Source: an uncultured Oligoflexia bacterium (lineage in GTDB: Bacteria; Bdellovibrionota; UBA1018; CAYHWW01). Taken from it: a stretch of 64,000 bases of DNA. Below are positions 1 through 39,872 of this stretch, piece by piece (positions within the stretch are counted from its first letter, which is position 1; every line of letters starts with the position of its first letter). Made by a program: the position numbers and the translations under genes. Under the pieces are notes generated by a model, which was not told where the DNA came from, searched no databases, and saw only the letters and a list, made by a program, of their open reading frames with translations. The stretch spans positions 846 to 64,845 of the forward strand of contig CAYYYP010000011.1 in assembly GCA_964475985.1 (NCBI GenBank), written 5' to 3'.

Positions 1-456
1 GAAATCTATCTCATTTACAAGGTTCGATGTCTCGCACTTCCTGGGTTCGATGATCTCCTTCGGCCTACTTTTTTGAGGCTCTGCCTTTTGAGCGGTCAGT
101 AAAGAAGGCCGAGCTCTCGAACGAAGGTTGTAGCGTACCGTTCGTTCCTGGCATCGGCAGTCTTTACAGACTCCATCTCGACGAAGAACATTGCCGAAAG
201 CGTCTTTCTCTTTTTCATAAAATTCATTTATTAGCTTTGAGCCTCTGCATTTTGCGCACACCTTTTCGGCGCCTTGATACTGCTGTACTTGGAACACGGT
301 TCATCTCCGTGAACTCCGAACCAGTTGATTCCCTTTCCCGATCCATTTTTTGTGTAGCTTTTAGACAACACCCAGCAATTCGGTTTCCAATACCCTGTAT
401 AAAAAGAGAGCCTACGGAGCGATCTCGACTCTCTTCATTTTTCAAAATCTCTCGAG

Positions 457-729
457 CTAAGCGGTTGCCCCCAGTAGGAGGCGACCCCATGCTGCTTCCC
501 ACTCAGCAATTGCAGCTCTGGGGTCATTGGCACTGAGCAGAGCGTGGTCGAGCCTCTCATTGATCTCGACCATCTTGCGCTCTTGCTCGAGCGAGAACCG
601 CTCGATCGTGCCTGGAACGTAGCGCCTGTTTAGACGCGCCAAGGCAAGTTTTAAGTCTGCCCAGGGTTCCTTGGGACCTTTGAGCTCCAAACGAGGCTGC
701 TCCTGCTTCAGATATTTGAGGTAGCTCAT
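457..729 (-). CDS. Hypothetical protein of the primase module
   Basis: 90 aa ORF; its start overlaps the primase stop (ATGA coupling at 726-729). Confidence 0.6.
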   Translation of the reverse strand: MSYLKYLKQEQPRLELKGPKEPWADLKLALARLNRRYVPGTIERFSLEQERKMVEINERLDHALLSANDPRAAIAEWEAAWGRLLLGATA

Positions 730-2906
730 GAATGGTCACCTTCTAGAGGGTGCGAAATAAGCGAATTATGCGAATTAACCCCCTGCCCAAGCATCGATTG
801 CTCAACTTCCAAATCAGAAATGTCGGTAATTGCAAACCATCGCGTCACGGGTCTCCCATCTCCCTCTTGTTGTTGGGCCGAACGAACCAAACCCGCCTTG
901 ACTAGACTTTGGAAAGCTTGCGCTAATGCATAGGAGGACTTATGGCGGCCAAAGACTTCGCTGATCTCGGTTTGGGTCAACCCCTTAGGTTTGACGCGAA
1001 GCTCTTCCAAGATGCGATCTGCTGTTGGATCGCCCGTCTTTTCGCCAAAGATGTATCGACAACTTGCGTCACAATAATCCCAAATCGCGGTCGCAGCCAA
1101 AAGGTGGGGCGGCCTGATCGTCGTTGAGCAATTAAGAACCGCGTAAAGAGAAGCAAGACGCAGTATCTGGGGCTCAGCTCTCGCCGTGACTGCTCCATAT
1201 AGCCCTGGCTTTCCTTCCGAGAGTTTCATGTAAAGGACTCGCCACATCGCCCGCGCTTCGGCATCGAAGCTGAGAGCGGAGCAACTCCCACCAAACCTCA
1301 GTGCTTCTTGAAGCCGAACCACGAAAGTGGAGATATCAACTGTGTCTCCACCTTCCGGAAGAAGCTTTGATCTCTTCACGCAAAGCCAGAGAAATCGATT
1401 GGCAAAGCCGTTCACGGACTCCGTTTCGGTCAGATACCGTAGGAGTTCGGGCCGAGTTATATGACCAATAATAGAAATATGTGCATTGCTTGCCTTTGAA
1501 GCATTACTCTTCGTGAGACTGCTAAGGTTCCCATGATCCCACGAGTCTCGAATAACCGCTGAAAGTTTATTTCCATCTCGCTCCACGGCTCGGAGAACAG
1601 AAGCAAGTTCAGTCTCGACATCGCAAAGTCGTTTGTCGCTGACTCCCGGATCAACGATCCTTTCTTCAGGCCCCCCGTCTTTATCTTCTCTCCATTCCTT
1701 TCTTTCATCGCGAACTGCCCACATCAGCCCTTCGCCACTAGCGAGTCCAGATTTGATACATTCTTTTCTCCAATTCGGATCGACTTGCTCAAAGAGACGA
1801 AGGATATGTCCCCATGAGGTTCCTTTTCGACCTTTTGAGCTTTCGCCGACGAGAACAGAAAAGAGGTTGAGATAATGTGCATCTGCTTCAACTGGAAAAT
1901 GGGCTTTTCGTCCGACAGCATTCCCAAACGCTGTTAAGAGTTGAATAAGAAGAGCTACGGAATCAGCTTCAGTATTGGGCTCGATTGCTCGAACTACTTC
2001 TCCAGCAAGACCGTAATACGCTTCTTCTCCAAGAGGCGAAGGCCATTGAGGCAGAGCAAGGGCCTTGAAAGAAATTTCGGAGGCGTCTTGGTTTTGAGCA
2101 ACTCCACTACGAATCAAAGACTTCCTTACATTGCTGACGAAGCGAGCCGCGTTCTCGTGAGGCGTTCGATTTCGCATCTGTTGATCGGATTGATCCGAAA
2201 ATAAAGGAGGTGAGTGCGATTGCAGGTCAAAGCGCAAAATCTCGCGAGTAATCTCTTCGTCGGGCTTTCCTTTGAGGACTGCCGCCACTACTTGATTTTT
2301 GAGTACGTCATTTCTTCCACCGCTTTTTCCGGATTCTAAAACCGTGGATTTCAGATCCGAAAAACAGTGCTCAAGCTGATCTATGAAATCAATGGGAAGC
2401 TCTTGCAATTCCGATGCATTCAAATTGAGAAGAGTATCTTGCGTGATCCAAACATAAGCTCTTCCCGTTTCCGGATGAATTGATCCGGGTAGTACCGTTT
2501 GATTTCCATCGCTCAAGAGCTCAACGATGGGTTTGCCTTGAGGATGAAGGCGAAATTTCCTACTCGTATGTCCAGCGTAACGAAAAAACGCAGTTTCACC
2601 TTTGGCTCCCCTTTTGCGAACGAGGGATGTGGGCAGGATTTTTTTTATTCTTTCCAGAAGGATCGGATCATCTGTATCAATATCCACTCCGACGATTCGG
2701 CTTGCCGCTCCCAACGGGAGTCCGATGTTGCCTGTGGGAAATGAGCTTTCCCATTCAGTCATTTCTTGACCAGTCGGTAGCACGCGGCAAAACCGAGACC
2801 AATCTTTTATGATCGGGTGCTTCCCGCGAGGTGCGAGAGGGATCACGGGAATACTGAGTTCGTAATATTTTCGACAGAGAACAGAAAAAATTTGTCCAGA
2901 TTCCAT
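726..2906 (-). CDS. Bifunctional primase/polymerase (Prim-Pol) fused to PriCT-like and DUF3987-like NTPase regions; mobile-element replication protein
   Basis: Prim-Pol motifs (PVIPL..GKHP, NIGLPLG, VGVDID, QTVLPGSIHP.TG..Y.W), GGRND motif, Walker-A-like LVGESSKGRKG, C-terminal winged-helix-like region. Confidence 0.85.
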   Translation of the reverse strand: MESGQIFSVLCRKYYELSIPVIPLAPRGKHPIIKDWSRFCRVLPTGQEMTEWESSFPTGNIGLPLGAASRIVGVDIDTDDPILLERIKKILPTSLVRKRGAKGETAFFRYAGHTSRKFRLHPQGKPIVELLSDGNQTVLPGSIHPETGRAYVWITQDTLLNLNASELQELPIDFIDQLEHCFSDLKSTVLESGKSGGRNDVLKNQVVAAVLKGKPDEEITREILRFDLQSHSPPLFSDQSDQQMRNRTPHENAARFVSNVRKSLIRSGVAQNQDASEISFKALALPQWPSPLGEEAYYGLAGEVVRAIEPNTEADSVALLIQLLTAFGNAVGRKAHFPVEADAHYLNLFSVLVGESSKGRKGTSWGHILRLFEQVDPNWRKECIKSGLASGEGLMWAVRDERKEWREDKDGGPEERIVDPGVSDKRLCDVETELASVLRAVERDGNKLSAVIRDSWDHGNLSSLTKSNASKASNAHISIIGHITRPELLRYLTETESVNGFANRFLWLCVKRSKLLPEGGDTVDISTFVVRLQEALRFGGSCSALSFDAEARAMWRVLYMKLSEGKPGLYGAVTARAEPQILRLASLYAVLNCSTTIRPPHLLAATAIWDYCDASCRYIFGEKTGDPTADRILEELRVKPKGLTQTEISEVFGRHKSSYALAQAFQSLVKAGLVRSAQQQEGDGRPVTRWFAITDISDLEVEQSMLGQGVNSHNSLISHPLEGDHS
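750..774 (-). repeat. Three TTCGC units at 9-bp period in the primase 3' end; candidate ori iterons
   Basis: GCGAA on + strand at 752, 761 and 770; encodes NSHNSLISH. Confidence 0.55.
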
Positions 2907-2924
2907 GGTCCATATTCCTTTCTG

Positions 2925-3269
2925 TTACTCACGACTGCCTGATGTAATTTCTTTGATCTGAGCCTCAAGGCCGCGCTCGCCTAGATATTTAAGCAGGCGA
3001 GAGCGAAGCAGCTTCCATCGAGGTGAATCTCCAATTTCCTGTTCGACGGAATCAAGAATGAGCCCGCGGTAATACGCAAGCGCGTCTAACAAGCGCCGTT
3101 CTGTGTTCTGATTATTCTCAAGCATATGATCTCCTGAATCGGAGACTGGACTTGGTAAGAGGAGAGAAAGGCAGGTTGGCCCTTTTCCAATTTTCCAAAA
3201 ACCAAATTCAGCATCCAAGTGCTCGTAAACGACTTGAGAGCCGATACGAGACAGACTACGTTTCACCAC
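2925..3269 (-). CDS. Hypothetical protein upstream of the primase; real start may be the internal MLENNQ
   Basis: 114 aa ORF co-oriented with and 18 nt from the primase gene. Confidence 0.5.
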   Translation of the reverse strand: MVKRSLSRIGSQVVYEHLDAEFGFWKIGKGPTCLSLLLPSPVSDSGDHMLENNQNTERRLLDALAYYRGLILDSVEQEIGDSPRWKLLRSRLLKYLGERGLEAQIKEITSGSRE

Positions 3270-3858
3270 TCGCAGTGGGTGTTAACTGGTGCTGAGAAAA
3301 CTTTTTTGGCTTCTTGCTCTGGCGTGAGCGTGAAGGTGCGCCGTTTTCGGCGGATTCGGACTCAAACAATTTGCGGTAGATGAGTCACGTGCGCGTTCTG
3401 TTTGCTTGCGGAACGCGTATCTTTTTGGGATTTTTCAAGCGTCCTGACGTGGGACCATCTCTCAATTTGCCTTAGAGAGTCACTTGCGGGCTTGCAAGTG
3501 GAGAGGTCTATGGCTGGACCTCCTCGCTTGATAATTCAGAGGATGGCCCTGACTTTTTCTAAAGTCAAACATATTTTTGACATAGGCTCGATGAAGACGC
3601 CCGAAAGGAATCGAACCAAGAACTAGCGTGAACGAAAGGAGAGGAGCCCTGCATACTCCGCTATCGACGTTCGCGTTCTCATTCTGAAGCGGGTCATCTC
3701 GATGTAAGCGATCCATTGAAGGCTACGGCTTTCCGTAACTTTTCAAACACCTGTCCTATTCTTAGACATCCAAGAGTACGAAAAATCGTACAACTATACG
3801 AATTTTCGAATAATGAGCGATTTTAAAATTGGTCTTTGATTTGCAGATTTAAGATGTC

Positions 3859-4461
3859 ATGAGGACGAGAGAGTTAAAGGCAAGCATCATATTTTTAGCT
3901 CTGTTTTCAGCGTTCTCCCTTTCAGGATGTGGCAAAGATGCCGGAGTTCCGAACTCTTCTCAGACTAATTCCCAAAACGCTCCCACCCCCTTACCGGCAG
4001 AGCTTCCAAGTGAAGATCCGAACCCAATCCCTTCGCCAAGCCCTACTCCAACAAATTTAGTTCAAACCCTGAGCATTACAACCCTGGGTGTTCAAGCCTT
4101 CCTAACACAGGCTGAAACAGGAAGCGCTCTGAAGCTCACCCTAAGTCCTAAACCTAATGACAATTCCGATTATGGCTGCGTAAGTTATCGGGTCGAGATC
4201 GGAGGAAACACTTTTCACACTGGCATACTGCGTGTGGAAGAAATCGATTCTGGAAATTGCTCTGCTTCGCCGACAAGCGCCGAAATCGACTATTCAAGCT
4301 ACCTTGCTGCTGGCGCTGCTAACGCGCTTGATATCCAAATTCGGGTCGAGCAGACCGACAGAAGTTGCTATTTGATGGGATTTCGGTGCCCATCTTGGAC
4401 GCCTCAGGCAACGGACTCGATGCACGGCGAGCTCACTTTAGAAATCAATCAACCCAACTAA
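3859..4461 (+). CDS. Hypothetical lipoprotein
   Basis: Signal peptide with lipobox LSG-C, then a Pro/Ser/Thr-rich linker. Confidence 0.7.
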   Translation: MRTRELKASIIFLALFSAFSLSGCGKDAGVPNSSQTNSQNAPTPLPAELPSEDPNPIPSPSPTPTNLVQTLSITTLGVQAFLTQAETGSALKLTLSPKPNDNSDYGCVSYRVEIGGNTFHTGILRVEEIDSGNCSASPTSAEIDYSSYLAAGAANALDIQIRVEQTDRSCYLMGFRCPSWTPQATDSMHGELTLEINQPN

Positions 4462-6008
4462 GTTTGCTGAATTTGTTCAGCGCTTTCCACCCCATGAAGT
4501 AAGCGCAAAATAACATCTTTCGCTCCGTAATCTTCCCGTCCTTTGGGCAGGAATTGTCGCAGTTGGGCCAAATCATTCCCGGCTGTCACTAAGGGCAACT
4601 CTTCGTAACCACTTTCCTGAGTCTGGCCAATGCCGATATTGGCCATCAGAGCATTGCAAAGGCATTTTCGATTGATCGTCTCCTCTATCTTGCCGCCTTT
4701 TTTGAGAAACTCATCAACGGGTTCGGCTGGACAACGATAAACGACCTTCCCATCTGCCGCACGAACGACCTGCCTGAGATAACCTAAATCACATTTTCTA
4801 GGACGCGCTTGAAAATGATCCTCTCCGGATAGACTTCCCTCAATCGGCACCACCTTAAACGGAAATCCGGTGGGCGAGGCAAGAGGGTCAGTGAAGACGG
4901 TAGGCGTCGGCTTCTCGGCGAGATCGTTTTTAAGACACCATTCCCGGATCACCGCATCTTTAAGCTTACGAGACAATCCCGATTCATTACAAAAAGCAAA
5001 AGCTGTTCCCACCTGAATTCCAGTGGCTCCCAAATGGAGCGCTTGCTCTAAACTTCGAGGTGAACCAAATGATCCGGCCAGCCAGAATGGGAGTCCAATT
5101 TTCTGAATGGCTTCCAGATCAGCATTATCCCGCTGTCCGTAGATCGGTTCCGATCTTTCGTTTAATTGCAGTGGACCTCTCGGTGGAGCATTGTGTCCTC
5201 CAGCAAAGTGATTCTCCACGACAAAACCATCGACCTTGCCATTGGATTTCCGAGAAAGATGAAGCGCCAAAGTCGCCGAGGAAATGATGGGTAAAAACTT
5301 AGGTCTCCTTAATAAAACACTAAGACCGCACATGTTTGGAAACACATGCTTAGGATCGAAACTGATATGGAGGTCATGCCCCTCAGTTTGATGGTCCTCT
5401 GTTAGGGACACTTTGATCACCGCTTTCTCATTTCGCGAAAAAAAATCTAAAACTCCTGGGATCTCTCGTGGCACGCCCGCACCCATGAGGACGTAATCTA
5501 CGCCAGCGAGCATAGCTCCATAAATTCCTGGAAGATTTGAAGTTTGAAGCTTTTCTAAAAAATTGATTCCAACAATGCCGTCATGTCCTTCTTTGGCCAA
5601 AAAGACTTCCACAAAGCTTGCAACAGCATTGAGCCGCTGAAGTCCTATCGACGCATCTAGAGTAGGAAGGGGGCTACGGTTATAACCCTGACCCGCTAAA
5701 CGTCCGTCTTTCTTCCAATAGGTATTAAAGATTTCTTGTGCGATTTTTTGATCTGGAAAATGGGATAGAGCGCGTTCCAAATGCCCGTGAACATCTCCGT
5801 CTTGAAGCCTTCGGACAAAAACTGTGTTGATCCCAGTTCCAGAGACCACGCCGAGCTGTCCTTCGGTCGAGACGGTTTTTGCAAGCTCCCAATTGGATAC
5901 CCCCACACCCATACCGCCCTGAATGAGAAGTGGAAACTCAGTTTGGTCGAGCGTATTTTGAGAGCGTTCTCTATGGATCATCGCTTCTTCTATGTAACCC
6001 GAAATCAA
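4458..6008 (-). CDS. Nitronate monooxygenase (2-nitropropane dioxygenase) family flavoprotein
   Basis: LIQGGMGVGVS, AGGHNAP, GIQVGTAF motifs. Confidence 0.85.
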   Translation of the reverse strand: MISGYIEEAMIHRERSQNTLDQTEFPLLIQGGMGVGVSNWELAKTVSTEGQLGVVSGTGINTVFVRRLQDGDVHGHLERALSHFPDQKIAQEIFNTYWKKDGRLAGQGYNRSPLPTLDASIGLQRLNAVASFVEVFLAKEGHDGIVGINFLEKLQTSNLPGIYGAMLAGVDYVLMGAGVPREIPGVLDFFSRNEKAVIKVSLTEDHQTEGHDLHISFDPKHVFPNMCGLSVLLRRPKFLPIISSATLALHLSRKSNGKVDGFVVENHFAGGHNAPPRGPLQLNERSEPIYGQRDNADLEAIQKIGLPFWLAGSFGSPRSLEQALHLGATGIQVGTAFAFCNESGLSRKLKDAVIREWCLKNDLAEKPTPTVFTDPLASPTGFPFKVVPIEGSLSGEDHFQARPRKCDLGYLRQVVRAADGKVVYRCPAEPVDEFLKKGGKIEETINRKCLCNALMANIGIGQTQESGYEELPLVTAGNDLAQLRQFLPKGREDYGAKDVILRLLHGVESAEQIQQT

Positions 6009-6145
6009 GACACGTGCGGTAAAAGTTCTGTAAGAGTTTTACCTTCCATTCCTAGCTGATCTGACAGACGGGACAAAATGTCCAATTGAGGTGATGCAAA
6101 CAACTTTCGCGTTCCTCATCGAAAGTTCGTTTTTATCTAAAGTTC

Positions 6146-6880
6146 ATGAAATCAAATTGTGAAAATGCGCACAATCACAGAAGATCAACCGTGAATATGT
6201 CAAACGATACGTACACCATTAGGACCGTCCTAGGGCTCAAGCACCCCGTGAGCGGGCTTCTTCACCTTGCAGGATTTATCTTGTCCATCCTAGGACTTGT
6301 TTGGTTTCTTTCGCTACCGACCAAAAGTAGCCGTTTTGAGTATCTATTTTCTGTATTCGCTTTTTCAATCAGCATGGCGCTTCTTTATCTTTCGAGCAGC
6401 TTCTATCACCTCATCAAGGCTTCTGATCGTTTGACCCGAATTTTACGCAAAATTGACCACTCGATGATCTTTGTTTTCATTGCAGGAACTTGCACGCCTT
6501 TTTGTTTAAGCTTTCCATCACTTCTCGCTAAGTGCCTAAGCGTCGCACTCATTTGGGCAATTGCAATGGGCGGGATTTTCTTTTCGACGCTTTTTTCAAC
6601 CGGATCGAGATGGATTCGAGTGGGAAGCTATCTTGCGATGGGAGGAGTAGGCGGAATTCTTGCCATTCAAATTCACGCGTTATTATCGCCTGAGAGCTTT
6701 CGTTGGATCGTTTTCGGAGGAGTGGCCTATATCCTAGGATCGCTTATTTACGCACTCAAATGGCCAAATCCTTCTCCACGGTATTTTGGATTCCATGAGA
6801 TCTGGCATATCTTCGTGCTTCTAGGAAGTGCATGCCATTTCTGGGCAGTCGAGCTTCACTTGAAATGGGCGTTCGCTTAA
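6146..6880 (+). CDS. Hemolysin III / PAQR family membrane protein; likely start at MSNDTY (6197)
   Basis: SSFYH, RKIDHSMIF, FHEIWHIFV motifs; multiple TM helices. Confidence 0.9.
   Translation: MKSNCENAHNHRRSTVNMSNDTYTIRTVLGLKHPVSGLLHLAGFILSILGLVWFLSLPTKSSRFEYLFSVFAFSISMALLYLSSSFYHLIKASDRLTRILRKIDHSMIFVFIAGTCTPFCLSFPSLLAKCLSVALIWAIAMGGIFFSTLFSTGSRWIRVGSYLAMGGVGGILAIQIHALLSPESFRWIVFGGVAYILGSLIYALKWPNPSPRYFGFHEIWHIFVLLGSACHFWAVELHLKWAFA
6158..6173. promoter_or_regulatory. CRP-like box TGTGA-N6-GCACA
   Basis: TGTGAAAATGCGCACA, one mismatch to the CRP consensus, between divergent nitronate monooxygenase and hemolysin-III genes. Confidence 0.35.
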
Positions 6881-6896
6881 ATTGCGATGAGCGTCA

Positions 6897-7304
6897 TCAC
6901 GAAATCTGAGTCACAATTTCAACATCAGGTGGCTCTTTTAGATGTCGTTTGACTGTGCACAAATTTGCAGCGCTGACCACGCTTTCGCGGTATTTCTCTG
7001 GAAAGGTAGTTGGCAATTTAAGTTCTAGAGTGATCTTTGTTACAAGCTTCCTATTTTCATCCCAAATGATTTTCTCTCTAAGTTCGATCCCATCGGTTGG
7101 AATCTTTCTTTTTTCACAAAAGCTTTGAATGAATACAGCCGCACAGGTTCCAATTGATGCAAGAAAAAGATCAAAAGGTCCCGGAGCCGCATTCTGGCCG
7201 CCGCTCTCTATCGACTGATCCGTCTGTACGGTGAAACCATTAAACTCCGCATCGACTCTCTTTTTTCCCTTAAAAAGAATCTTCATCTCTAGGTCAGGTT
7301 GCAT
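6897..7304 (-). CDS. OsmC family protein
   Basis: PGPFDLFLASIGTC and NLCTVKRHL motifs. Confidence 0.85.
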   Translation of the reverse strand: MQPDLEMKILFKGKKRVDAEFNGFTVQTDQSIESGGQNAAPGPFDLFLASIGTCAAVFIQSFCEKRKIPTDGIELREKIIWDENRKLVTKITLELKLPTTFPEKYRESVVSAANLCTVKRHLKEPPDVEIVTQIS

Positions 7305-7436
7305 TGACCACCTTTCTCTTAAGCCTTGTCAAAAGCACGCGAGTACCTCCTGAAGAGGCTAAGAAAGCCTAGCCTGGCTTATGATTCATCCAAGCTAGGC
7401 TCCGTGAATTGATACATGTAGAAACTCAAGTAAGTG

Positions 7437-7829
7437 CTATTTCTTGCCTGCTTTGCGGAAGTCCAAAACGTAATAGGTCAATGCCCATCGTTCTTCCTCA
7501 CTTAAATGCCCAAACCCCACCATCGAGGTATTCGGCAATCCTTGAGAAATGGTTTTAAAAACCTTCTCAGGCTTATCGCCTTGTTTGAATTTATCAGCGA
7601 TAAAATTTCTAGGTTTTGGATTCATCATCGCTCCTGCAACACCATTGCCGTCCCCTTTGTCGCCGTGGCAGGTCATGCAGTTGGTGGCGTAGGAGGTCTT
7701 ACCCTTTTCTAAAAGGACAGGTGTTAACTTTGGGGGCGCCGCTAGAACAAGCGAGCTTATCAAAATAGCCGCGACACTTCCCATTCCGACCATCATTCGT
7801 TTTATTTCCATCTCCATCTCCATTTTCAT
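7437..7829 (-). CDS. Periplasmic monoheme cytochrome c
   Basis: Signal peptide, CMTCH heme motif, PRNF, TSMVGF distal Met. Confidence 0.9.
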   Translation of the reverse strand: MKMEMEMEIKRMMVGMGSVAAILISSLVLAAPPKLTPVLLEKGKTSYATNCMTCHGDKGDGNGVAGAMMNPKPRNFIADKFKQGDKPEKVFKTISQGLPNTSMVGFGHLSEEERWALTYYVLDFRKAGKK

Positions 7830-7970
7830 TTTTCTCCTTTTCGTGTTGAGTAGCCGTGGACCTTTTCACATTTCCATGACCTTAAGTTCAAAACAAAGCC
7901 TCTGCACTTTCACAAAGCTCTGTTTTAAGTTATCGAAGAACTGAGTCTTGTCCCAAATGGGACGGAACCA

Positions 7971-9095: not shown

Positions 9096-9096
9096 G

Positions 9097-9384: not shown

Positions 9385-9410
9385 TTTTTCTTTCTCCTTG
9401 CTTTTTGGGG

Positions 9411-29844: not shown

Positions 29845-29869
29845 CTTCCCTTAATATATCCAGTTTCTT

Positions 29870-32507: not shown

Positions 32508-33330
32508 CCTTTTCTCGCAAAAGAATGCTTGTTCCTTTGTAATTGCAATCATGCTTACCGCCGGATGCGTTCTCCTTTCGCATCCGGCAAAGGCTTCCCA
32601 AAAAGAGTTCCTTTTACCTTCTGGAAGCTATCTGCCGTTTTTCTCTCCTAAGAGTTCAAAGGACAAAAGATCATCCGATGATGTGATAAAAAAGCCCGTT
32701 ACCGTTCAATCATTTTGGATGGATACTTATCCAGTCTCAAACGGCGACTTTCTAGAGTTCGTAAAAGCCAATCCTGATTGGCGACGCTCCAAAGTAAGTC
32801 GCATTTTTGCCGATGATTCTTATTTAAAACACTGGAAAGGCGATCTCTCGCTAAAAACACCTAAAGACCTAAATCGTCCGGTGATTCACATCTCTTGGTT
32901 TGCAGCTCAGGCCTATTGTGAATCCCTAGGACGTGAGCTCCCAACAACGGATCAATGGGAATACGCAGTAAATAATGGTGGTCAACATCAAGATCAAATC
33001 AAGCAAGCCATCATTGCCTGGTATAGCGAACCCAATTCAAAGTCTTTACCTAATGTCAAAGCCACATCCGCGAATCACTACGGTATTCGCGCTCTTATTG
33101 GTGTGATCTGGGAGTGGACGCTTGATTTCAATAACACGATGATGGGCTCTGAACTCAGAAACAGTGGAATTAAACAAGAAGATCTCTTTTGCGGTGCAGG
33201 AAGCTTAGGGGCCTTGGACGCTTCAGACTACGCCAAATTTATGAGGTATTCGTTTCGTGGAAGTTTGAAGGCCGATTACACGACAGCAAATCTTGGCTTT
33301 CGATGCGCGAGGGAGGCAGCAAAAAAATGA
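32467..33330 (+). CDS. FGE-sulfatase domain protein (NirV-like); start may be near 32551
   Basis: [41 protein letters not shown]; follows nirK. Confidence 0.85.
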
Positions 33331-33947
33331 AATATCAAACAACTTTAAATTATGGTCAGTGGCTCTTAATATTCGTGCTACTCGCAATCCCGTTTATTCA
33401 GATACGTGCCGTTCAGGCAGATGCATTAAATTTAAAAAGTAAATCTCTTTACCACTCAAAAACTCAGTTTGAGAATCAAGAGGGCAAAAAGATTTCTCTC
33501 TCGGATTTAAAAGGTACACCCTTAGTAGTGGCTATGCTCTACACCAGCTGCCAGGCGTCTTGTCCGCTGACGATGGCTGATCTTCGGGCCATAGAAAAAG
33601 GGCTCTCGCCTGACGAGAAGAAAAAAGTCAGATTTGCTGTTTTTACTTTTGATTCTGAAAAAGACACTCCAAAACACCTGAAGTCATTTTCTCAAAAGCA
33701 AAACGTTGACCTTAGCCATTGGACTTTTTTCCATAGTAGCCCTAAAAACATTCGCGAGCTTGCAGCATTGCTAGGAATCAAATTCAAAAAACTTGACTCA
33801 GGCGATTTTGACCACTCCAATATCATTACGATTCTCGACCAAGAGGGAGTCATCATTCATCAGCAAGTTGGAGTTCGTCAAAATCCAGAAGAGTCCATTC
33901 AGACGTTAAAGAAACTTCTTGGCAGCGAAAGTCACGACAAGAAGTGA
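33327..33947 (+). CDS. SCO1/SenC copper chaperone; start moved to MKYQTT
   Basis: YTSCQASCP, FDSEKDTP, FDHS; ATGA overlap. Confidence 0.9.
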   Translation: MKYQTTLNYGQWLLIFVLLAIPFIQIRAVQADALNLKSKSLYHSKTQFENQEGKKISLSDLKGTPLVVAMLYTSCQASCPLTMADLRAIEKGLSPDEKKKVRFAVFTFDSEKDTPKHLKSFSQKQNVDLSHWTFFHSSPKNIRELAALLGIKFKKLDSGDFDHSNIITILDQEGVIIHQQVGVRQNPEESIQTLKKLLGSESHDKK

Positions 33948-33971: not shown

Positions 33972-34535
33972 TCAATGATCAAGCATGATCTGAATGTTCA
34001 CATCGAGCTTATCTTTGCAGCGAAGTGAGCCACCCATTCCGGTAAGCGGCTTAATCTTAAAGTCGCTCTGGAGAATACTGGCCTGACACAAAAGACTGTT
34101 TTTTGTGTGCTTAAAAACAAGGTCAATCTCTTTGGAAATTCCGTTAATCGTAAGCTTTCCCATAACGACTACAGAAAACGGGTAACAAGAATCTCGAATG
34201 GAGGCTACCGTCGAGACAAAATGGATTTCTGGAAACTGATCGATTTTAAGAATTTTATCTGAAACTGCCTTGAGAATTCTTGAATGATCAGAGCTTGAGA
34301 TTTTTTCAGAAATAACTTTAAGAGAATCGGCATTCACCAACACCTGAACTTGAGGTGTAGAATTCAAGTCCACTTGAGCTTGAATTTTTGATGCCAGTAG
34401 TTTTGGAGAAGTGGTCACAAAAGAAAGAGGCCCTTCGACTGAGGTTTGAATCTCAATACGAATCTCCTTTTCTGTAAGGCTTCGGGGCAGGCTATTTTGA
34501 AGGTCTGCGGATCTCCCTTCGGATCTGAAATTCAC
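33972..34535 (-). CDS. YceI family protein
   Basis: QFPEIHF.ST, GKLTINGISKEI, QSDFKI. Confidence 0.75.
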   Translation of the reverse strand: MNFRSEGRSADLQNSLPRSLTEKEIRIEIQTSVEGPLSFVTTSPKLLASKIQAQVDLNSTPQVQVLVNADSLKVISEKISSSDHSRILKAVSDKILKIDQFPEIHFVSTVASIRDSCYPFSVVVMGKLTINGISKEIDLVFKHTKNSLLCQASILQSDFKIKPLTGMGGSLRCKDKLDVNIQIMLDH

Positions 34536-34686
34536 CTAGTCTCTCTTTCGACAAAGGATAAAGATTCTAGGTCAGTGCAAATAACGTGCGCTGTTATTTT
34601 ATCATTCTAGAGGAGAAAATCACTGCATTTTGAGCAAAATTGTCCCATCAACGGGACATCTCGGAGACTGTTCTCATGCCCCTGTC

Positions 34687-35247
34687 TTAAAGTGGCGCTG
34701 ATCCAGTAAAGCGGTATACTCGTAAGCGAAACCGCCATCCCAGCGCCAACGAAGTATACCCCCCGAAAACCGAACCGATCATCCAAGCGATCCCAAATGT
34801 TATTGCGACCGTAGCGCCGAGAGAGGCAAATACAAAAACGGAGAGCCAGGAAAGCAAAACCAACTGTACAAACTCTCTCTTACGGATGGCTCTGATCTCT
34901 TCTGGTTTGAGGACAAGGCTTGAGACAAACATACTTGCACCTAAAAAAAGAGCCCCACACGCAATAGAGCAAACGAGCTCGCCAAAATGCATGAAAAGGG
35001 CCGTAAGCCCCATACCTTCAAAAAGCCCAATTCCAAACTGCGGACAAATGAGCAGCACCAAAAATCCAACAACAAAATGGATTAGAGCAAGTTTAACAAA
35101 CACCATCCATTGTGAAGGATTCAAATCGCTCTGCACTATCTTGATGATCCGAGAGGAAATGGGTTCTGGCGGCTCTCGCTTTTCCGCCGAGAGAAAGCTT
35201 TGAAATTCATTTGCCCACTCATTTAAAAGTAATTTTTTCTCATTCAT
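34687..35247 (-). CDS. Membrane protein, putative anti-sigma factor
   Basis: Coupled to the ECF sigma gene; TM helices containing Cys (ICPQFG, VCSIACG). Confidence 0.65.
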   Translation of the reverse strand: MNEKKLLLNEWANEFQSFLSAEKREPPEPISSRIIKIVQSDLNPSQWMVFVKLALIHFVVGFLVLLICPQFGIGLFEGMGLTALFMHFGELVCSIACGALFLGASMFVSSLVLKPEEIRAIRKREFVQLVLLSWLSVFVFASLGATVAITFGIAWMIGSVFGGYTSLALGWRFRLRVYRFTGSAPL

Positions 35248-35768
35248 CGGTTTTTCCTTAATTTTTTAATCGCGCGACTGATAAGTTGCCGCACATTCGC
35301 GGGCGAAGTTTCAAGACGCCTTGAAATGTCGTCAAACGAATAATCGTGCGCAAACCGAAGTGTCACTGCTTGCTTCTGAGATTCGGAAAGCACAGCCAAA
35401 TTCGGAAGAGATACTTTCGGCTCCAAGTCTTGGGTTTGGGCATGAGCCTGCTCAATATACTCTGGGCTAAGATCTTCGATCGAATTCTCTTTTTTCCTTA
35501 CCGCATCGATCATCACGGTTCGACAAATCGTAAAGAGCCAAGGCAGAAATGGAAAAGATGGATTGTATTGGCCTCTAGAACGATGAAGTTTCAATAACGT
35601 AGCTTGAAAAACGTCATCGACGACCGGGCGCTCTTTGAGTCTCTGAACAAGATAGCCATAAACTTTGGAGGAGTGCCTCTGGTAAAGCTCACAAAAAGCG
35701 AGTTCGTCGCCTTGTTTATACTTCGTCATGAGCACCTCGTCAGATAAGGACTTCATCTCTTTCGCCAT
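35244..35768 (-). CDS. ECF RNA polymerase sigma factor; start moved to MAKEMK
   Basis: DDVFQATLLKLHR, WLFTICR..MID, region 4 with RQLISRA. Confidence 0.9.
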   Translation of the reverse strand: MAKEMKSLSDEVLMTKYKQGDELAFCELYQRHSSKVYGYLVQRLKERPVVDDVFQATLLKLHRSRGQYNPSFPFLPWLFTICRTVMIDAVRKKENSIEDLSPEYIEQAHAQTQDLEPKVSLPNLAVLSESQKQAVTLRFAHDYSFDDISRRLETSPANVRQLISRAIKKLRKNR

Positions 35769-35926
35769 ATAGTTATTGGACTCTGGTCCGCTTATTATTC
35801 CTACGTTCCAAATGGCTATTTTGTGACACTCAAACAAAAAATAAATGCCGTCACAAAGGCTCTTTTAGGTTCGTATTTAACTATAGCGTTAACCAATGTT
35901 TTGAACCAGAAAGGAAGATCTTATTT

Positions 35927-36118
35927 ATGCGTTTACCAATACTTTTCGCTCTAGCTCTCCTGGCGACAAATCCTGCTTTTTCAGCCGATACTCACTGCCA
36001 ATGCAGCAAGGAATGCATGGAAAGTTGCCAGAATGGGCACGGAAAAGACTGCCAGTGCAAGCATTGCGATTGCAAGAAAACAGGAAAGTGCAGTGACAAT
36101 CACTGCGAGAAAAAGTGA
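35927..36118 (+). CDS. Secreted Cys/His-rich metallothionein-like peptide
   Basis: Signal peptide ending AFS-A, then 44 aa with 10 Cys and 4 His. Confidence 0.7.
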   Translation: MRLPILFALALLATNPAFSADTHCQCSKECMESCQNGHGKDCQCKHCDCKKTGKCSDNHCEKK

Positions 36119-36415
36119 CGAGCGGTTATCCGCTGTGAAATGGCAAGAAGTAGCAGTCTTTATTAGATAGGCTTAGTGTCTTTGGGTTGCTCTGGCGGTA
36201 CGAGCAAGTCTTCAAGAGAAAATTCGGCAAGCTCCGACCTGCTCGCCAGGCCTGCCTTGGAGTAGATCGAAGTGGACTGATCTCGAAGGGAGTAGGTCTA
36301 AACAAAGGCCGCTCCCTTCGTCTGCGCTAGAAGTGACTTTCGTATTGAGCCGTGGATTCTTGATTAGAATTGACAGACTGTTTTTAAGGCGAGTATCCAA
36401 AACCCTGAGGGTTTC

Positions 36416-36802
36416 ATGATCACGTCCCATTTTATTCTTTATGTCAGCGACCAAGAGCGAAGCACTCGATTTTACTCCACCGTTCTTGGACAAAAACCAC
36501 AGCTTCATATGCCAGGTATGACAGAGTTTGGATTAAGCGATACTTGCGTTCTAGGGCTAATGCCCGAAGCAGGAATTAAGCGCCTGCTTGGTGATCGACT
36601 ACCTGATCCCGCAATCGCCAATGGAACTCCCCGTGCGGAAGTCTATCTCCGAGTCGATGACCCTCAAGCTTTTCATCAACGCGCAATTGAAATGGGTGCG
36701 CAAGAGCTGAGTCCCCTGGAAAAGCGAAGCTGGGGCGATATTGCTACATATAGTCTTGATCCTGACGGGCACGTACTTGCTTTTGCCAAAGCGGCTAAAT
36801 GA
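36416..36802 (+). CDS. VOC/glyoxalase family protein
   Basis: ILYVSDQERS..FY, WG....Y..DPDGHVLAFA. Confidence 0.9.
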   Translation: MITSHFILYVSDQERSTRFYSTVLGQKPQLHMPGMTEFGLSDTCVLGLMPEAGIKRLLGDRLPDPAIANGTPRAEVYLRVDDPQAFHQRAIEMGAQELSPLEKRSWGDIATYSLDPDGHVLAFAKAAK

Positions 36803-36809
36803 ATAGATT

Positions 36810-36872
36810 AAAAATTTTTCGCAGGCGACATGGAATATCCGCATCAGAGCCCGACCCACCCCCATCCCCCCC
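36810..36872 (-). other. cos/packaging-site-like G-tract
   Basis: Minus strand GGGGGGGATGGGGGTGGGTC...GCGAAAAATTTT. Confidence 0.3.
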
Positions 36873-37066
36873 TTAAGAGGCTTTCCCTTTTCAATCAATC
36901 ACCCCGTACGCGATAGGGTTAGCTAAGGGTAAAGAAACCCTTTGCATACCCTTTGAGTAAAATGTGGGCTTTAAAACACCCGGATCGATTCGGAATTAGA
37001 GGGAGAGATCAGAACCGAAATTAGGTTCCAACCTATGCCTTGGCGAAGTTGGCAGCGACGAACTGT

Positions 37067-37163
37067 CTTATTTCGCTTAATTCGCACTTCGCAGCGTTGT
37101 ACCAAAGATGGGAGGGACTTCTCTTCTCTTTGCTTCGCTTAATTCGCTTATTTCGCACTCGCA
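37067..37163 (+). repeat. TTCGC iteron-like cluster matching the primase 3' end
   Basis: TTCGC at 37072, 37081, 37088, 37134, 37143 and 37152; 37140-37158 is the exact reverse complement of 750-768. Confidence 0.7.
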
Positions 37164-37260
37164 AGCCTTCCAGGGCAGGAGAGGCGCGTACCCAAAACTT
37201 CAGTTTGGAGTACACCCAAAACAGCATTTCGGCGCTCAATAGTATCAAGGGGTTGGAAGG

Positions 37261-37845
37261 TCAGTTTTGGAGGGGTTTGGGGTACAGCGACTTTTGAACG
37301 CTGCCCTTGGCAATCCCAAGCTTGGTGGCTATCTGGCGAATAGAGAGGCCCACAGAGCGAAGCTGACGGATCGCCTCGTCATCGCGCTCTTTCCTACGTC
37401 CAAGCTTTCGACCCTTCTTCTTAGCGTTAGCAAGACCGGCACGGACCCTCTCGCGAATAAGGCTTGCCTCAAACTCCGCGAAAGCGCCAATCAGATGGGC
37501 CATAAGGCGTCCTGCTGGGGTGCTTAGATCAATTTGATCTTTCATTGAAATGAAGTCCACACGGCAATCCTGAAGCGTCTCAAGCAAGCTCAATAAATCC
37601 TTCAACGAACGAGCAAAGCGGTCGAGCTTCCACACGAGACCCAAAGAAAACTTGCCAGTCTGCATATCAGCGAGCATCTGCTTGAGTTGGGGACGATTGG
37701 CGGTCGTACCCGTGATCTTCTCCTCGTAGATTCTGTAAGCCTCCCAGCCTTTGCTCTTGGCGAACTCCGTCAGCTCGCGAATCTGCAATTCCGTGTCCTG
37801 CTGCTCCGAAGAAACCCTGGCATACAGGGCAACATGCTTTTTCAT
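37261..37845 (-). CDS. Small serine recombinase (resolvase/invertase) with C-terminal HTH
   Basis: YARVS, RPQL, VWKLDRFARS, AFAEFE..LIRERV.AGL..A. Confidence 0.95.
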   Translation of the reverse strand: MKKHVALYARVSSEQQDTELQIRELTEFAKSKGWEAYRIYEEKITGTTANRPQLKQMLADMQTGKFSLGLVWKLDRFARSLKDLLSLLETLQDCRVDFISMKDQIDLSTPAGRLMAHLIGAFAEFEASLIRERVRAGLANAKKKGRKLGRRKERDDEAIRQLRSVGLSIRQIATKLGIAKGSVQKSLYPKPLQN

Positions 37846-38174
37846 GATTCGATATTCTCCGACTTTTTGATCCGTGCATGGACACGATGAATTTCTGCGC
37901 CCAATTCAACGGAATCAAAGGTGCAAGAGCGTAAAGTTCGCCCAAAGAAGTAGTGCTCCCTCACGATCTTACGATTGATATACTCGTCGATCGTATGCGC
38001 GATCTCCTCAAGGCTCTCAACGTCAAAGCATTCCAAGTCCTGTATGTTCAAAAGTAGATTTGCGATCATTCTTAGTCTGTAGTCGTCTTGGCAAACGATG
38101 TCCTGGTAACGCATCGCAAACTGATCAAACTTCCGACAACAAGGTTTCATCATGGCTTTCTTGGAACTACTCAT
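37842..38174 (-). CDS. Hypothetical protein coupled to the recombinase
   Basis: 110 aa with 4-nt overlap. Confidence 0.6.
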   Translation of the reverse strand: MSSSKKAMMKPCCRKFDQFAMRYQDIVCQDDYRLRMIANLLLNIQDLECFDVESLEEIAHTIDEYINRKIVREHYFFGRTLRSCTFDSVELGAEIHRVHARIKKSENIES

Positions 38175-38256
38175 AGACAGCGTCTATACTACGGTCTAAA
38201 ATGTATAGCAATATGCAAGTATTGTGAAGTGATAGCGTTTGTATAGAATCTAAGGA

Positions 38257-38454
38257 ATGACGCTACCTAAGCTTCCAGACAACGGGCCGAGAAATGTCGG
38301 AGTTTCTTTTCGGATTTCAAAGATATCGGCAGACCAATTGAAGGCGCTAGCGAAGTCCAATGGGCTCAGCCAAGCCGATGTCATCGAGTGGCTTTTGGAT
38401 CGTGAGTGCCAGGCTCAGAATAAGAAGAAGTCGGAATCTAAGAAGGAGAAGTAG
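38257..38454 (+). CDS. Ribbon-helix-helix (CopG/Arc-like) DNA-binding protein
   Basis: VGVSFRIS....QLKALAK..GLSQADVIEWLL; CTATAC/GTATAG inverted repeats upstream (38184-38208). Confidence 0.7.
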   Translation: MTLPKLPDNGPRNVGVSFRISKISADQLKALAKSNGLSQADVIEWLLDRECQAQNKKKSESKKEK

Positions 38455-38458
38455 TCCT

Positions 38459-39148
38459 ATGAAGGGCTCCAAGAAGCATCCAAATACAGTTGACCGAGAC
38501 AGAACTAATCCAAAAAGTCTTGTCTCTATGATTGAAGGCGAGGCTTTTGAGAAAGCACTTGAGAAAGTCCCCGACGAGTATTGGGCTTTAAGCGAAGAAG
38601 AACTCCAAAAGCTCGCCAAGCCCTCCCGCACTGACTACGCCTTAAAGCTCGCATTCTGGAATGAGATCCGTTTGGCTGGCGAATACATCACAACCATCAA
38701 GCCTCAACGCATTTATGGCGGAATCTGCTCTTACGCAAATTGGCATCAAAACATGCTTTCCGTGCCAGAGAAGCTTGCCTGGCTTCTTTGCCCACTTCGA
38801 GATTTTCAAAAGAGCCTCGAACCGCTCTTGTACTGCATGGTGGAACGCTACTGGGAAGTCATGCAGCTTCCATTCTATGACAAGAAAGGCAACGTGATCG
38901 CCGGGAATGTGAAAGCTGTTCTACAGGTCAGTAAGCAGGTCGAAGATCGTCTTCTGGGGAGCGCTGTTCAGAGAAGCGTCAGCCAAAACCAGAGTGTCCA
39001 GGTACGAGCTAATGTCGATGGGGATATTGGAATTCGTCCGGGAGAAAGCGAGACGGCTTATATGACACGACTTAATAAGCGCCTAAAAGAGCTAGAAGAA
39101 GAAGAGCGGGAAGCCATGCACCTACCTCCGCCAAAGATTGAAAATTGA
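38459..39148 (+). CDS. Phage-type protein, possible terminase small subunit; start moved to MKGSKK
   Basis: LKLAFWNE...IYGGICS...EKLAWLLCP...DRLLGSAVQR resembles, from memory, proteins next to terminase genes in uncultured phages; not a verified hit. Confidence 0.4.
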   Translation: MKGSKKHPNTVDRDRTNPKSLVSMIEGEAFEKALEKVPDEYWALSEEELQKLAKPSRTDYALKLAFWNEIRLAGEYITTIKPQRIYGGICSYANWHQNMLSVPEKLAWLLCPLRDFQKSLEPLLYCMVERYWEVMQLPFYDKKGNVIAGNVKAVLQVSKQVEDRLLGSAVQRSVSQNQSVQVRANVDGDIGIRPGESETAYMTRLNKRLKELEEEEREAMHLPPPKIEN

Positions 39149-39350
39149 TTTTCCCGCACCGTATCGCGTGCGCTTCGATGAATATCCCCCGATAACACTT
39201 TTTAGCTATCTGACGAGATCGTTGATTCATGATCTATAAGATCGATTTTATTAAGCTTTTAGCGATCCCTGGGCACTCTCTAACTGCATCTTCCAACCCG
39301 CAAATAGTTACATGGTGCGCAAGGCACTCACTAGAGTGCTATAGCGGTTC

Positions 39351-39412
39351 TGGAAACAAGACCCTTTGTTTCCAATCTGTGTTTCCGTGATAAGGATTGT
39401 TTCCAGAAACAA
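39351..39412. repeat. Cluster of five GAAACA/TGTTTC motifs, including an inverted repeat
   Basis: TGGAAACAA-N6-TTGTTTCCA, then GTGTTTCC and TTGTTTCCAGAAACAA. Confidence 0.6.
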
Positions 39413-39514
39413 CCTAGGCTGCGATTAACTCTTTGATTGCATTGACGTTGTAGTAAGGATTTTCTATGAAGAACGTTCGATATGAAGCGGCTTGTGCACG
39501 CCAAATAAATTTGT

Positions 39515-39558
39515 AAAACCGAAGATGAAAATAAAAAACTCATCTTCGGTTTTTTTTT
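39515..39558 (+). terminator. Intrinsic terminator
   Basis: AAAACCGAAGATGA / TCATCTTCGGTTTT stem followed by a T-run. Confidence 0.8.
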
Positions 39559-39567
39559 AATCTAAAA

Positions 39568-39709
39568 TACCCCACGGGGATTCGAAGCCATGACTCCGGC
39601 CTGCCAAAGCAGGCTGAGGGAGCGTGACGCGACCGAAAGGAGTCATGGCCGGCCCGGAGAAAGGAGCCGCTGGAGGCGCGACGCACGCAGGGCGAATGCC
39701 GCTTGGGAC
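39568..39709. other. tRNA 3'-end-like 19-mer joined to a GC-rich nested-hairpin element
   Basis: Minus strand TTCGAATCCCCGTGGGGTA; GCCATGACTCC/GGAGTCATGGC stem enclosing a GCCTGC-CAAA-GCAGGC hairpin. Confidence 0.5.
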
Positions 39710-39872
39710 TCGGAGGTGCTCTTTGCCTAGGACGCTAGTTATGATTCCGCAAAGTCCGACGAATCAAACTTTAATAATGAAAACCTAACCTAGCCCAAGG
39801 GTAGGTCAATATTACTTCCCGATGCGATAAGGGGATGGCAACTAGTGATGGATCCCGACGCCATTGATGCCT

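Follow-up and report, generated by a model that had tools for sequence, protein, structure and literature searches.

The DNA analysed here, called the window, is a stretch of 64,000 nucleotides from an uncultured Oligoflexia bacterium (GenBank assembly GCA_964475985.1, contig CAYYYP010000011.1, positions 846 to 64,845), and coordinates below are window positions unless a comparison locus is named. Its left side carries genes for nitrate and nitrite respiration between two small gene modules for replication and recombination. We consider the odds slightly in favour of bases 1–39,503 being the larger part of a genomic island of about 41 kb that integrated site-specifically at the 3′ end of a tRNA-Glu gene; the rest of the window, to 64 kb, is right flank. 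The island is made up of three parts: a 5.5-kb proximal element (window 1 to ∼3,617), about 33 kb of respiration cargo and a 2.7-kb distal module. Window proteins were searched against Pfam, PHROG, NCBIfam, PDB and PADLOC, RNA elements against Rfam, and folds with Foldseek. The comparison loci were L001; L002 and L005, both on one 44.5-kb contig; L003; L004 and L086, from a third genome (Ga0172367_10000347); and L088, L089, L090 and L093; the members of the 90%-identity cluster of the window's primase-polymerase (Prim-Pol) protein led to three of these, L001, L002 and L003.

The left end of the window holds the inner 3.6 kb of the proximal element, which in relatives runs on into a gene for a large serine recombinase (LSR) and ends at tRNA-Glu. 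All its window genes lie on the minus strand. The 5′ part of a gene for a 147-aa protein (1–300) is cut by the window edge, the next features leftward in relatives being the LSR gene and then tRNA-Glu. It is followed by a 90-aa gene (457–729), the 726-aa replication protein (726–2906) and a 114-aa gene (2925–3269), which has no family match and is 92% identical in relatives. The start of the 90-aa gene overlaps the Prim-Pol stop codon (ATGA), and the two genes adjoin in all relatives. A Prim-Pol/DUF3987 replication module had been proposed in an earlier, sequence-only reading of this DNA, and the searches bear this out: the protein matches Pfam Prim-Pol (1e-18) and PHROG primase and helicase families, its homologues carry PF13148/DUF3987, and its C-terminal winged helix-turn-helix (wHTH) domain gives a weak match. 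Inward of these genes lie a conserved hairpin and dyad (3461–3502), which lie at the inner end of the element and are kept in the divergent primase element of the third genome, and a T-loop-like motif, GGTTCGATTCC (3607–3617, minus strand), which together with an added T forms an invariant 12-mer. This motif marks the inner limit of the 5.5-kb element and is the same in three different surroundings. The hairpin and dyad form a 42-nt stretch that is 88% identical to L086 8460–8500, while the two primase elements otherwise share only ∼56% protein identity; it is probably an operator or cis site.

Window positions 1–3498 align with L001 12908–9384 (85%) and L003 12909–9387 (87%). Since this alignment begins at base 1, the window starts inside the proximal element. 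A 574-aa LSR is encoded at the homologous position in L001, L002 and L003, and the window is cut ∼300 bp short of it; from the 85–87% identity up to base 1 we infer that the LSR gene is present here as well, with the LSR and tRNA genes expected ∼1.8 kb beyond the left window edge. The order in L001 and L002 is Moco (molybdenum cofactor) genes, lipoprotein, 114-aa gene, Prim-Pol, 90-aa gene, 147-aa gene, LSR and then tRNA-Glu, the tRNA being oriented with its 3′ end towards the recombinase.

The proximal 5.5-kb unit is autonomous, exchangeable and modular. L001 9301–14784 and L003 9307–14785 are 89.5% identical and have unrelated flanks on both sides; in L003 the 5.5 kb lie between tRNA-Glu and a cluster of FUR and Zn-paralogue ribosomal-protein genes. 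The third genome has at the same place relative to the Moco cluster an element with DUF3854 and DUF3987 that ends at tRNA-Ala, and L089 combines the Prim-Pol cassette (96.7% identical) with another LSR, beside genes of an integrative and conjugative element (ICE). The inner limit of the unit, with its invariant T-loop-like 12-mer, is sharp, and outer att-type sites were found at both ends of the island. Two observations concern the neighbours of this unit. L089 4380–11915 is an ICE stacked at the same place, with a tyrosine integrase, an HTH_17 excisionase-like gene, TraG/VirD4 and TrbI beside the Prim-Pol and LSR559 element. L003 1–9300 holds a Zur-type set comprising FUR, paralogues of L31, L33, L28 and S18, two CobW genes, ZIP and a DHOase-like gene.

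The cargo occupies ∼3.9–36.8 kb and is coherent, consisting of a molybdoenzyme of the nitrite oxidoreductase (NXR) type, Moco synthesis, NirK-NirV-SCO1 and regulators. It opens with variable accessory genes assigned by profile matches (3859–9384): a lipoprotein, an NMO-like gene found in the window only, HlyIII, OsmC, a cytochrome c, a ThiF/MoeB-rhodanese gene (7971–9095, plus strand) and DUF2249. A 458-aa open reading frame (ORF) on the minus strand at 7866–9242 was discarded as a shadow of this gene, the plus-strand gene being called in relatives too. The Moco kit follows, again by profile matches (9411–15614, minus strand), with DUF7009, MobA, MoaE, MoaD, MoeA, a MOT1 molybdate transporter, MoaC-MoaB and MoaA. 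Upstream of moaA lies a Moco riboswitch (15558–15722, minus strand; 64.9 bits, E=2.5e-13), so that the cofactor genes of the island carry their own cofactor-sensing control.

Next to this kit are nxrA, nxrB and genes for a heme-b gamma subunit, a NarJ-type chaperone and TatA (15725–22295, minus strand; profile and PDB matches). NxrA begins with a twin-arginine translocation (Tat) signal, RRKFLQG, and matches Kuenenia NxrA (PDB 7B04_B) over its full length at E=3e-273, versus 1e-38 over only part of the protein for Escherichia coli NarG. Type II beta, gamma (EB_dh heme-b) and chaperone models match NxrB, the gamma subunit and the chaperone, respectively. Judged by these matches, the nxr gene set is that of a predicted periplasmic nitrate/nitrite oxidoreductase of the NXR type (type II dimethyl sulfoxide reductase family). 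Its context, with NirK, NnrS and Crp/Fnr and no CO2-fixation genes seen, suggests that it would work in the direction of nitrate reduction.

Between the nxr genes and nirK, profile matches identify Crp/Fnr, NnrS, DGC, radical SAM, PAP2, a PLP (pyridoxal phosphate) decarboxylase and a beta-barrel outer membrane protein, together with two orphan genes, one of them with a Tat-like motif (22340–30981). The nirK region (31017–33947, plus strand; profile matches) encodes a NirK-cytochrome c fusion, an FGE (formylglycine-generating enzyme)-sulfatase-like protein of the NirV type and SCO1/SenC, a trio that is widespread. The closest NirK sequences come from metagenome-assembled genomes of Bdellovibrionota/Oligoflexia (up to 81% aa), and NirK itself may have been transferred. 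The last cargo segment (33972–36802; profile matches) holds YceI, an orphan that is a candidate anti-sigma factor, an extracytoplasmic function (ECF) sigma factor, a small Cys-rich protein and a glyoxalase, and has diverged as much as the more diverged cargo segments (glyoxalase 69% nt). The nitrate-to-nitric oxide (NO) kit of the sequence-only reading was thus recovered throughout, its NXR-type enzyme, Moco synthesis, TatA, NirK and regulators all being matched. No annotated cargo ORF matched a nitric-oxide reductase family, which makes 'nitrate to NO' a fair label.

At the inner limit of the distal module lies a C-rich tract (approximately 36850–36872) that is conserved in relatives. A conserved hix/res-like dyad of 26 bp, GTACCCAAAACTTCAGTTTGGAGTAC (37188–37213), stands beside a gene for a 194-aa small serine recombinase of the resolvase/invertase type (37261–37845, minus strand), whose matches to Resolvase (1e-45) and PHROG DNA invertase (1e-61) confirm an earlier assignment and whose dN/dS is ∼0.06. 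No partner of the dyad occurs within the window; a single dyad beside the recombinase is more in keeping with a resolvase acting at a site of its own than with an inversion switch. Then come a 110-aa orphan gene that is conserved within the module and has no family match (37842–38174, minus strand), a 65-aa probable ribbon-helix-helix (RHH) regulator (38257–38454, plus strand) and a 229-aa orphan predicted to be all helical, whose family has 12 members (38459–39148, plus strand). The 65-aa ORF is a candidate for the RHH repressor that had been named at this place, its sole support being a weak family match (E=0.0045). A conserved non-coding tail with GGAAAC/GTTTCC dyads (39149–39503, plus strand) closes the module and ends in the 3′ end of a pseudo-tRNA-Glu, ...GTGCACGCCA, which a breakpoint shared by four loci marks as attR. 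Over 36.8–40 kb, Rfam at a permissive threshold gave nothing but chance terminator-like matches.

Comparison with other loci sets this module off from its surroundings. Identity between the window and L005 is ∼69% in the glyoxalase gene and 81–97% from ∼36,950 to 39,500. L088 carries the distal unit (window 36,913–39,202) among arsenic and fluoride resistance-type genes, its flanks being joined to neither L089 nor any other locus. In L093 the unit (window 37,316–39,503, 88.8%) directly abuts a 636-aa LSR, a 296-aa gene and an FtsK/SpoIIIE-type gene, and the last 57 codons of the LSR ORF read into the tail of the module. The distal module is a discrete unit found in other settings.

In its strict form, the sequence-only reading amounts to a single satellite- or tycheposon-like element, at least 39 kb long, that would exploit phage capsids, by means of a TerS-like protein and a cos-like tract, to move the respiration kit. 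In favour of this, a primase-helicase, a small serine recombinase and cargo do lie between tRNA-related ends; small serine recombinases are listed among the hallmark genes of tycheposons, and if the island is drawn as a circle, the two modules would form a single uninterrupted backbone around attP. The packaging half of this proposal, however, finds no support. The presumed TerS, the 229-aa protein, matched nothing in Pfam, PHROG, NCBIfam or PADLOC and had no phage or plasmid tblastn match, and its AlphaFold model (pLDDT 66.5, all helical) found no Foldseek match in PDB or BFVD, so that neither sequence profile nor fold gives a TerS signal. None of the module proteins matched a PHROG packaging family or a PADLOC defence system, nothing links the C-rich tract to packaging, no capsid or packaging gene was found, and a scan of viral contigs with Prim-Pol as the only query returned no relative. 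Moreover, 41 kb exceeds the size of tycheposons or phage-inducible chromosomal islands (10–20 kb), and the proximal module moves and is exchanged independently. The block up to ∼39.5 kb does behave as one horizontally acquired island, but the strict one-element version fails on L003, L089, L088, L093 and the third genome, in which the modules appear as independent elements: the proximal unit is separable and the distal module also occurs elsewhere. We therefore regard capsid hijacking by a single element as improbable.

The two ends of the island share a short repeat. An 18-mer occurs exactly at 750–767 (minus strand) and 37141–37158 (plus strand), with 0.08 matches expected by chance, and the surrounding 32-nt arms, 88% complementary, form the best inverted repeat in the window. 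The 19-bp repeat shared by the two flanks, as reported previously, is accordingly real (exact as an 18-mer), but it consists of inverted iterons and is neither direct nor an att repeat. It is built of 9-bp units, TTAATTCGC/TTATTTCGC. The left arm, found by repeat search, is an array of three such units in the last codons of the Prim-Pol gene (743–774, minus strand), where it encodes the last residues of the protein. Two arrays in the distal module (37066–37095 and 37128–37165, within 37066–37165, plus strand) are cognate to this 3′ end and represent a candidate replication origin or Rep-binding site. Wherever one contig contains both ends, a comparison of its primase locus with its distal locus again yields the iteron block as the best short match (L002 12133–12155 and L005 6679–6701, 23 nt, 96%; L086 11396–11419 and L004 6699–6722, 24 nt, 92%). 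The motif differs between genomes, being of the TTCGC type in one and of the AATACGT type in the third, and it changes together with the primase element. Iterons that track the primase-helicase in this way fit an initiator and its binding sites rather than a dead relic, and the two ends of the island are thus, on comparative grounds, predicted to be functionally linked through iterons that change together. In L004, the ACGT-type iterons lie at ∼6620–6794 in an insert of ∼170 bp that replaced the 3′ end of the serine recombinase gene, and a remnant of the old recombinase C terminus and a degenerate TTCGC-type array are found beside it.

Inverted arms at both ends could also be sites for the invertase-type serine recombinase, which would make the 36 kb between them an invertible segment. 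This idea draws on the best inverted repeat of the window bracketing the cargo and on the recombinase scoring best against the PHROG DNA invertase family. The arms, however, are tandem 9-bp iterons and not hix-like dyads, the sole hix-like dyad (37188–37213) has no partner in the window, all three genomes show one orientation, and the left arm lies within a coding sequence that continues into a coupled gene. An invertible segment is accordingly the least credible of the readings considered. An inversion that split one element at the iteron arms was likewise rejected, Prim-Pol being intact, coupled to the 90-aa gene and contiguous in L003.

The distal border can be placed at a single base. The window, L005, L093 and L004 share the non-coding tail and all diverge at one position, directly after the pseudo-tRNA 3′ end. 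In the window, ...GGCTTGTGCACGCCA is followed by AATAAATTTG and then a terminator; in L005, ...GCGCACGCCA is followed by ATAAAAAAG, a terminator and a group II intron; in L093, ...GTGCACGCCA runs into the LSR gene in antisense; and in L004, ...GGGTCCACCA is followed by TTTTTTGG. The tail ends in ...ACGCCA in the window, L005 and L093 and in ...TCCACCA in L004, which are the 3′ ends of the tRNA bounding the other end, namely tRNA-Glu and, in the third genome, tRNA-Ala, respectively. The last 12 nt of the window tail agree with the tRNA-Glu end at 9/12 positions, a score reached at 2.7e-4 of window positions, and the L004 tail agrees with the tRNA-Ala end at 11/14, a score reached at 2.3e-5 of window positions. 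Both tails agree better with their own tRNA than with the other one. A T-arm-type tRNA-Ala fragment in L004 was considered as well; none was found, and it is the acceptor end that matches. On two single contigs of relatives, the tRNA and the pseudo-tRNA end are direct repeats on the same strand, 42.4 and 41.5 kb apart, and the gene order between them is alike on both and represents the same block as in the window. It is on these grounds, the four-locus breakpoint, the cognate tRNA ends and the direct orientation with the tRNA on two contigs, that attR was placed at 39,503. A direct attL/attR pair implies that all DNA between the tRNA and 39,503 lies inside integrated material, whether one or several integrations produced it.

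Beyond attR, the terminator noted previously is present as a predicted bidirectional intrinsic terminator outside the island (approximately 39518–39558). A terminator stands after attR in L005 as well as in the window, the arrangement expected downstream of a tRNA gene, and we read that of the window as the native terminator of the targeted tRNA-Glu gene. The tRNA-end-like fragment of the sequence-only reading was also found: on the opposite strand, 17 nt (39573–39589, minus strand) reproduce the T-loop and acceptor of tRNA-Glu exactly. As att site, this inverted 17-mer at 39,573 was rejected, and the pseudo-tRNA end at 39,503, which is in direct orientation, was preferred. In the stretch 39573–39720, the 17-nt copy is followed by GC-rich DNA with an 11-bp stem (GCCATGACTCC/GGAGTCATGGC); the stretch has no Rfam match and no copy elsewhere. 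In L005, the group II intron (9050–11094; 5′ GTGCG, 475-aa reverse transcriptase/maturase) stands right after the post-attR terminator, and the contig ends inside or just after it.

Nucleotide composition changes near the same border. Canonical tetranucleotide profiles of 2-kb chunks were scored, leaving one out, against cargo and right-flank centroids. Every chunk from 1 to 40 kb was nearer the cargo centroid, except that at 30–32 kb (the nirK region), and every chunk from 40 to 64 kb was nearer the right-flank centroid. This break near 40 kb is directly observed. Cargo signatures of the window and of JACCDG011097521.1 correlate at r=0.989, compared with 0.80 for the window cargo and its own right flank. 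The flank carries photolyase, Dus and NfeD genes. Its rhomboid gene has one close relative only, in the sister-strain locus L090 (97% nt, Logan SRR14932552), which starts at 40,462, short of the junction; L090 differs by a 1.1-kb DnaJ-domain gene (L090 365–1495) inserted at window 40825/40838. A contig scan with a 332-aa right-flank ORF as query found nothing; the real call is 39873–40661, 262 aa, a cluster of one. Three further features deserve mention. Cumulative GC skew has its minimum at ∼38000–40000, with a negative slope at 1–38 kb and a positive one after 40 kb, coinciding with the island border. Tetranucleotide and GC outliers within the right flank are a HEAT-repeat gene (45432–48869, 1145 aa) and a giant LamG/fn3 gene (53644–57090, 1148 aa). 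Between these two lies an HNH/DUF222 gene (52035–53324).

A switch of this kind could arise from a chimeric contig, with DNA of two organisms fused near 39.5 kb (and, in L001, at the tRNA) and false borders as the result. Tetranucleotide signature and GC skew both switch at ∼39–40 kb, L002 ends exactly at tRNA-Glu while L001 continues into DNA of 54% GC, and the sister-strain contig starts at 40,462 without crossing the junction. Nevertheless, the tRNA-like pieces at 39.5 kb measure 6–17 nt, and no long repeat that might confuse assembly occurs there. Homology in three independent assemblies ends at exactly the base of the breakpoint, which is accompanied by a tRNA-type terminator. We consider a chimera very improbable.

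Synonymous divergence (dS, Nei-Gojobori) between the window and the closest island is unevenly distributed. It is 0.33–0.73 in both modules, 0.30–0.59 from MoaA to NxrC and 0.44–0.84 at 22.3–27.9 kb, and it rises to 1.1 to saturated at 3.8–14.6 kb and 1.25 to saturated at 28–36.8 kb. For nxrAB, dS is 1.4–1.5 although the proteins are 93–95% identical. These two genes (18810–22295 and neighbours) are flanked on both sides by segments of dS 0.3–0.8, which suggests that the nxrA/nxrB alleles were replaced by recombination. Gene content differs too: the NMO-like gene is confined to the window, and PAS, LuxR, cytochrome b561 and PepSY genes to the relative. The view that the modules are younger than all of the cargo was abandoned once the middle of the relative's island had been compared, the dS pattern being a mosaic.

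These values bear on the possibility that the respiration block is native and vertically inherited, with two unrelated small mobile elements at its ends because of a tRNA hot spot nearby. Both small units do occur elsewhere without the cargo (L003, L088 and L093), many cargo genes are far more diverged than the modules (dS 1.1 to saturated versus 0.3–0.7), composition does not break at the island ends of the third genome, and in many phyla NirK-NirV-SCO1 form an ordinary chromosomal cluster. A native block is nevertheless difficult to reconcile with the attR-type pseudo-tRNA end at 39,503, which is in direct orientation with a tRNA ∼41 kb away and puts the cargo inside integrated DNA, or with an att end and iterons that both differ when the proximal element does. 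Tetranucleotide composition shifts at 40 kb, and the cargo of different genomes shares an almost identical signature; the segments from MoaA to NxrC and at 22.3–27.9 kb are as little diverged as the modules, and the right-flank rhomboid gene has no relative of >40% identity outside the sister strain, whereas cargo proteins have such relatives. We judge a native block unlikely, while giving it real weight.

A number of further points weigh against a tRNA-integrated island. The window itself contains neither LSR nor tRNA; no tRNA gene was detected within it. No empty site, circular junction or coverage step was seen, and transfer or packaging genes are absent from the island. The identity between attR and the tRNA end is short, at 6–11 nt, and the inverted 17-nt tRNA-Glu copy beyond attR has no explanation in the island model. 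The invariant T-loop-like 12-mer at the inner limit of the 5.5-kb element is inverted relative to the tRNA. GC rises from 0.45 to 0.54 beyond tRNA-Glu in L001, a jump that may be an assembly chimera since the sister contig L002 ends exactly at that tRNA-Glu, and the third genome is without a composition break at the island ends. The L003 segment 1–9300 could itself be cargo and not host core, because its tetranucleotide signature is island-like. Finally, the mosaic of dS values indicates that the islands recombine, so the present island did not simply arrive through a single recent transfer.

Taken together, the best reading is a composite island acquired by tRNA integration, with a separable proximal element. 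The anatomy, the unit limits, and the iterons and att ends that vary jointly between genomes are observed in the loci themselves; excision, replication and transfer are what we infer from them. Movement of the whole island as a single unit is plausible, and the island looks like a vehicle carrying anaerobic respiration between bacteria. In the mechanism we envisage, the tRNA-side junction would have two possible partners for the LSR: recombination with the inner end would release just the 5.5-kb element, and recombination with the distal attR would release the whole island, in the manner of accretion and cis-mobilisation. Once excised, the circle would replicate in plasmid fashion, with the wHTH domain of the Prim-Pol helicase binding both the iterons at the 3′ end of its own gene and those of the distal module. 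Multimers would be resolved at the adjacent dyad by the small serine recombinase, and the RHH protein would act as a regulator. In a recipient, the cargo would enable periplasmic reduction of nitrate to nitrite (or nitrite oxidation), followed by reduction of nitrite to NO.

A more specific model is offered as a tentative possibility that we do not expect to hold in full. Here, the island would be a plasmid-like, LSR-integrating replicon in which a Prim-Pol Rep at the tRNA end is kept matched with an iteron origin, resolvase and att arm at the far end. When the driver is swapped, the distal iterons and the pseudo-tRNA end would be re-fitted (from Glu to Ala and from the TTCGC type to the ACGT type), so that the 33-kb kit of periplasmic NXR, NirK and Moco genes would ride successive drivers between hosts of different genome signature.

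NXR-type enzymes and nirK have a patchy distribution shaped by horizontal gene transfer, and vehicles with defined ends have rarely been described. The island offers a candidate vehicle with testable junctions, on the tRNA-Glu side and at 39,503, and it pairs the iterons, as a candidate origin, with Prim-Pol as candidate initiator. Its cargo is complete and self-sufficient, including the enzyme, its chaperone, TatA, Moco synthesis with a riboswitch, molybdate uptake, a copper chaperone and regulators. If the island is mobile, uncultured bacteria can gain anaerobic nitrate-to-NO respiration in one step, which would bear on how nitrogen-cycle potential is read from metagenome marker genes and would extend tycheposon-like island building beyond marine cyanobacteria and methylotrophs.

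Among known systems, the tycheposons of Hackl et al. (bioRxiv 10.1101/2020.12.28.424599) resemble the island in several described features: a site-specific integrase by a tRNA (LSRs occur in that family, the LSR here being deduced from relatives), a primase/helicase, a small serine recombinase, metabolic cargo, partial-tRNA junctions and stacking at one tRNA. Tycheposons measure 10–20 kb, count small serine recombinases among their hallmark genes, and form islands in which newly arriving elements insert at one shared tRNA and displace earlier ones inward (bioRxiv 10.1101/2020.12.28.424599). The present island differs in its size of ∼41 kb (proximal unit 5.5 kb), its non-cyanobacterial, uncultured lineage, a pseudo-tRNA junction of 6–11 nt, the absence of a terS or major capsid protein gene, and a cargo that is respiratory (NXR-type enzyme, NirK and Moco) rather than assimilatory. 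Cis-mobilizable elements (CIMEs) formed by accretion, reviewed together with cis-mobilisation of islands in PMC5704250, likewise place an autonomous, integrase-bearing element beside a larger cargo bounded by a second att-type site, with the same consequence that either the small unit or the composite could excise. In contrast to these, the island is without conjugation genes, its integrase is a serine recombinase, and its internal att site is located by the limit of the element only.

The integrative and conjugative elements of actinomycetes (AICEs) share with the island tRNA integration, plasmid-like replication and, in some of them, a prim-pol protein, and belong to a different lineage. They have an FtsK/SpoIIIE-type translocase; the distal module of L093 abuts an LSR and an FtsK-like gene, whereas the window island is without an FtsK-like gene. 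AICEs are 9–24 kb in size and carry little cargo. The replication modules of Staphylococcus aureus pathogenicity islands and phage-inducible chromosomal islands (SaPI/PICI) consist of a primase-helicase Rep and an iteron origin adjoining its gene, with short Rep-specific iterons at or after the 3′ end of that gene. The primase-helicase with a DNA-binding C terminus and the iterons at the 3′ end of its gene are alike here, but the present island has another set of cognate iterons ∼36 kb distant, at its opposite end, and packaging functions are lacking.

The conjugative element for nitrate respiration (NCE) of Thermus thermophilus (PMC5748679, PMC6282519) also places nitrate and nitrite respiration genes with their regulators on transferable DNA. 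It encodes a membrane-bound NarGHJI-type enzyme on a megaplasmid or conjugative region, as opposed to a periplasmic NXR-type enzyme on an island integrated at a tRNA by an LSR. The sequence-only reading had named no precedent for respiratory nitrogen cargo on such an element outside cyanobacteria; mobile nitrate respiration is in fact already known from the Thermus NCE (PMC5748679). Cargo islands that integrate at a tRNA and carry serine integrases and primases are known too. New in the present case are the kind of cargo, the lineage, and the way in which iterons and att end change as a pair when the proximal element does.

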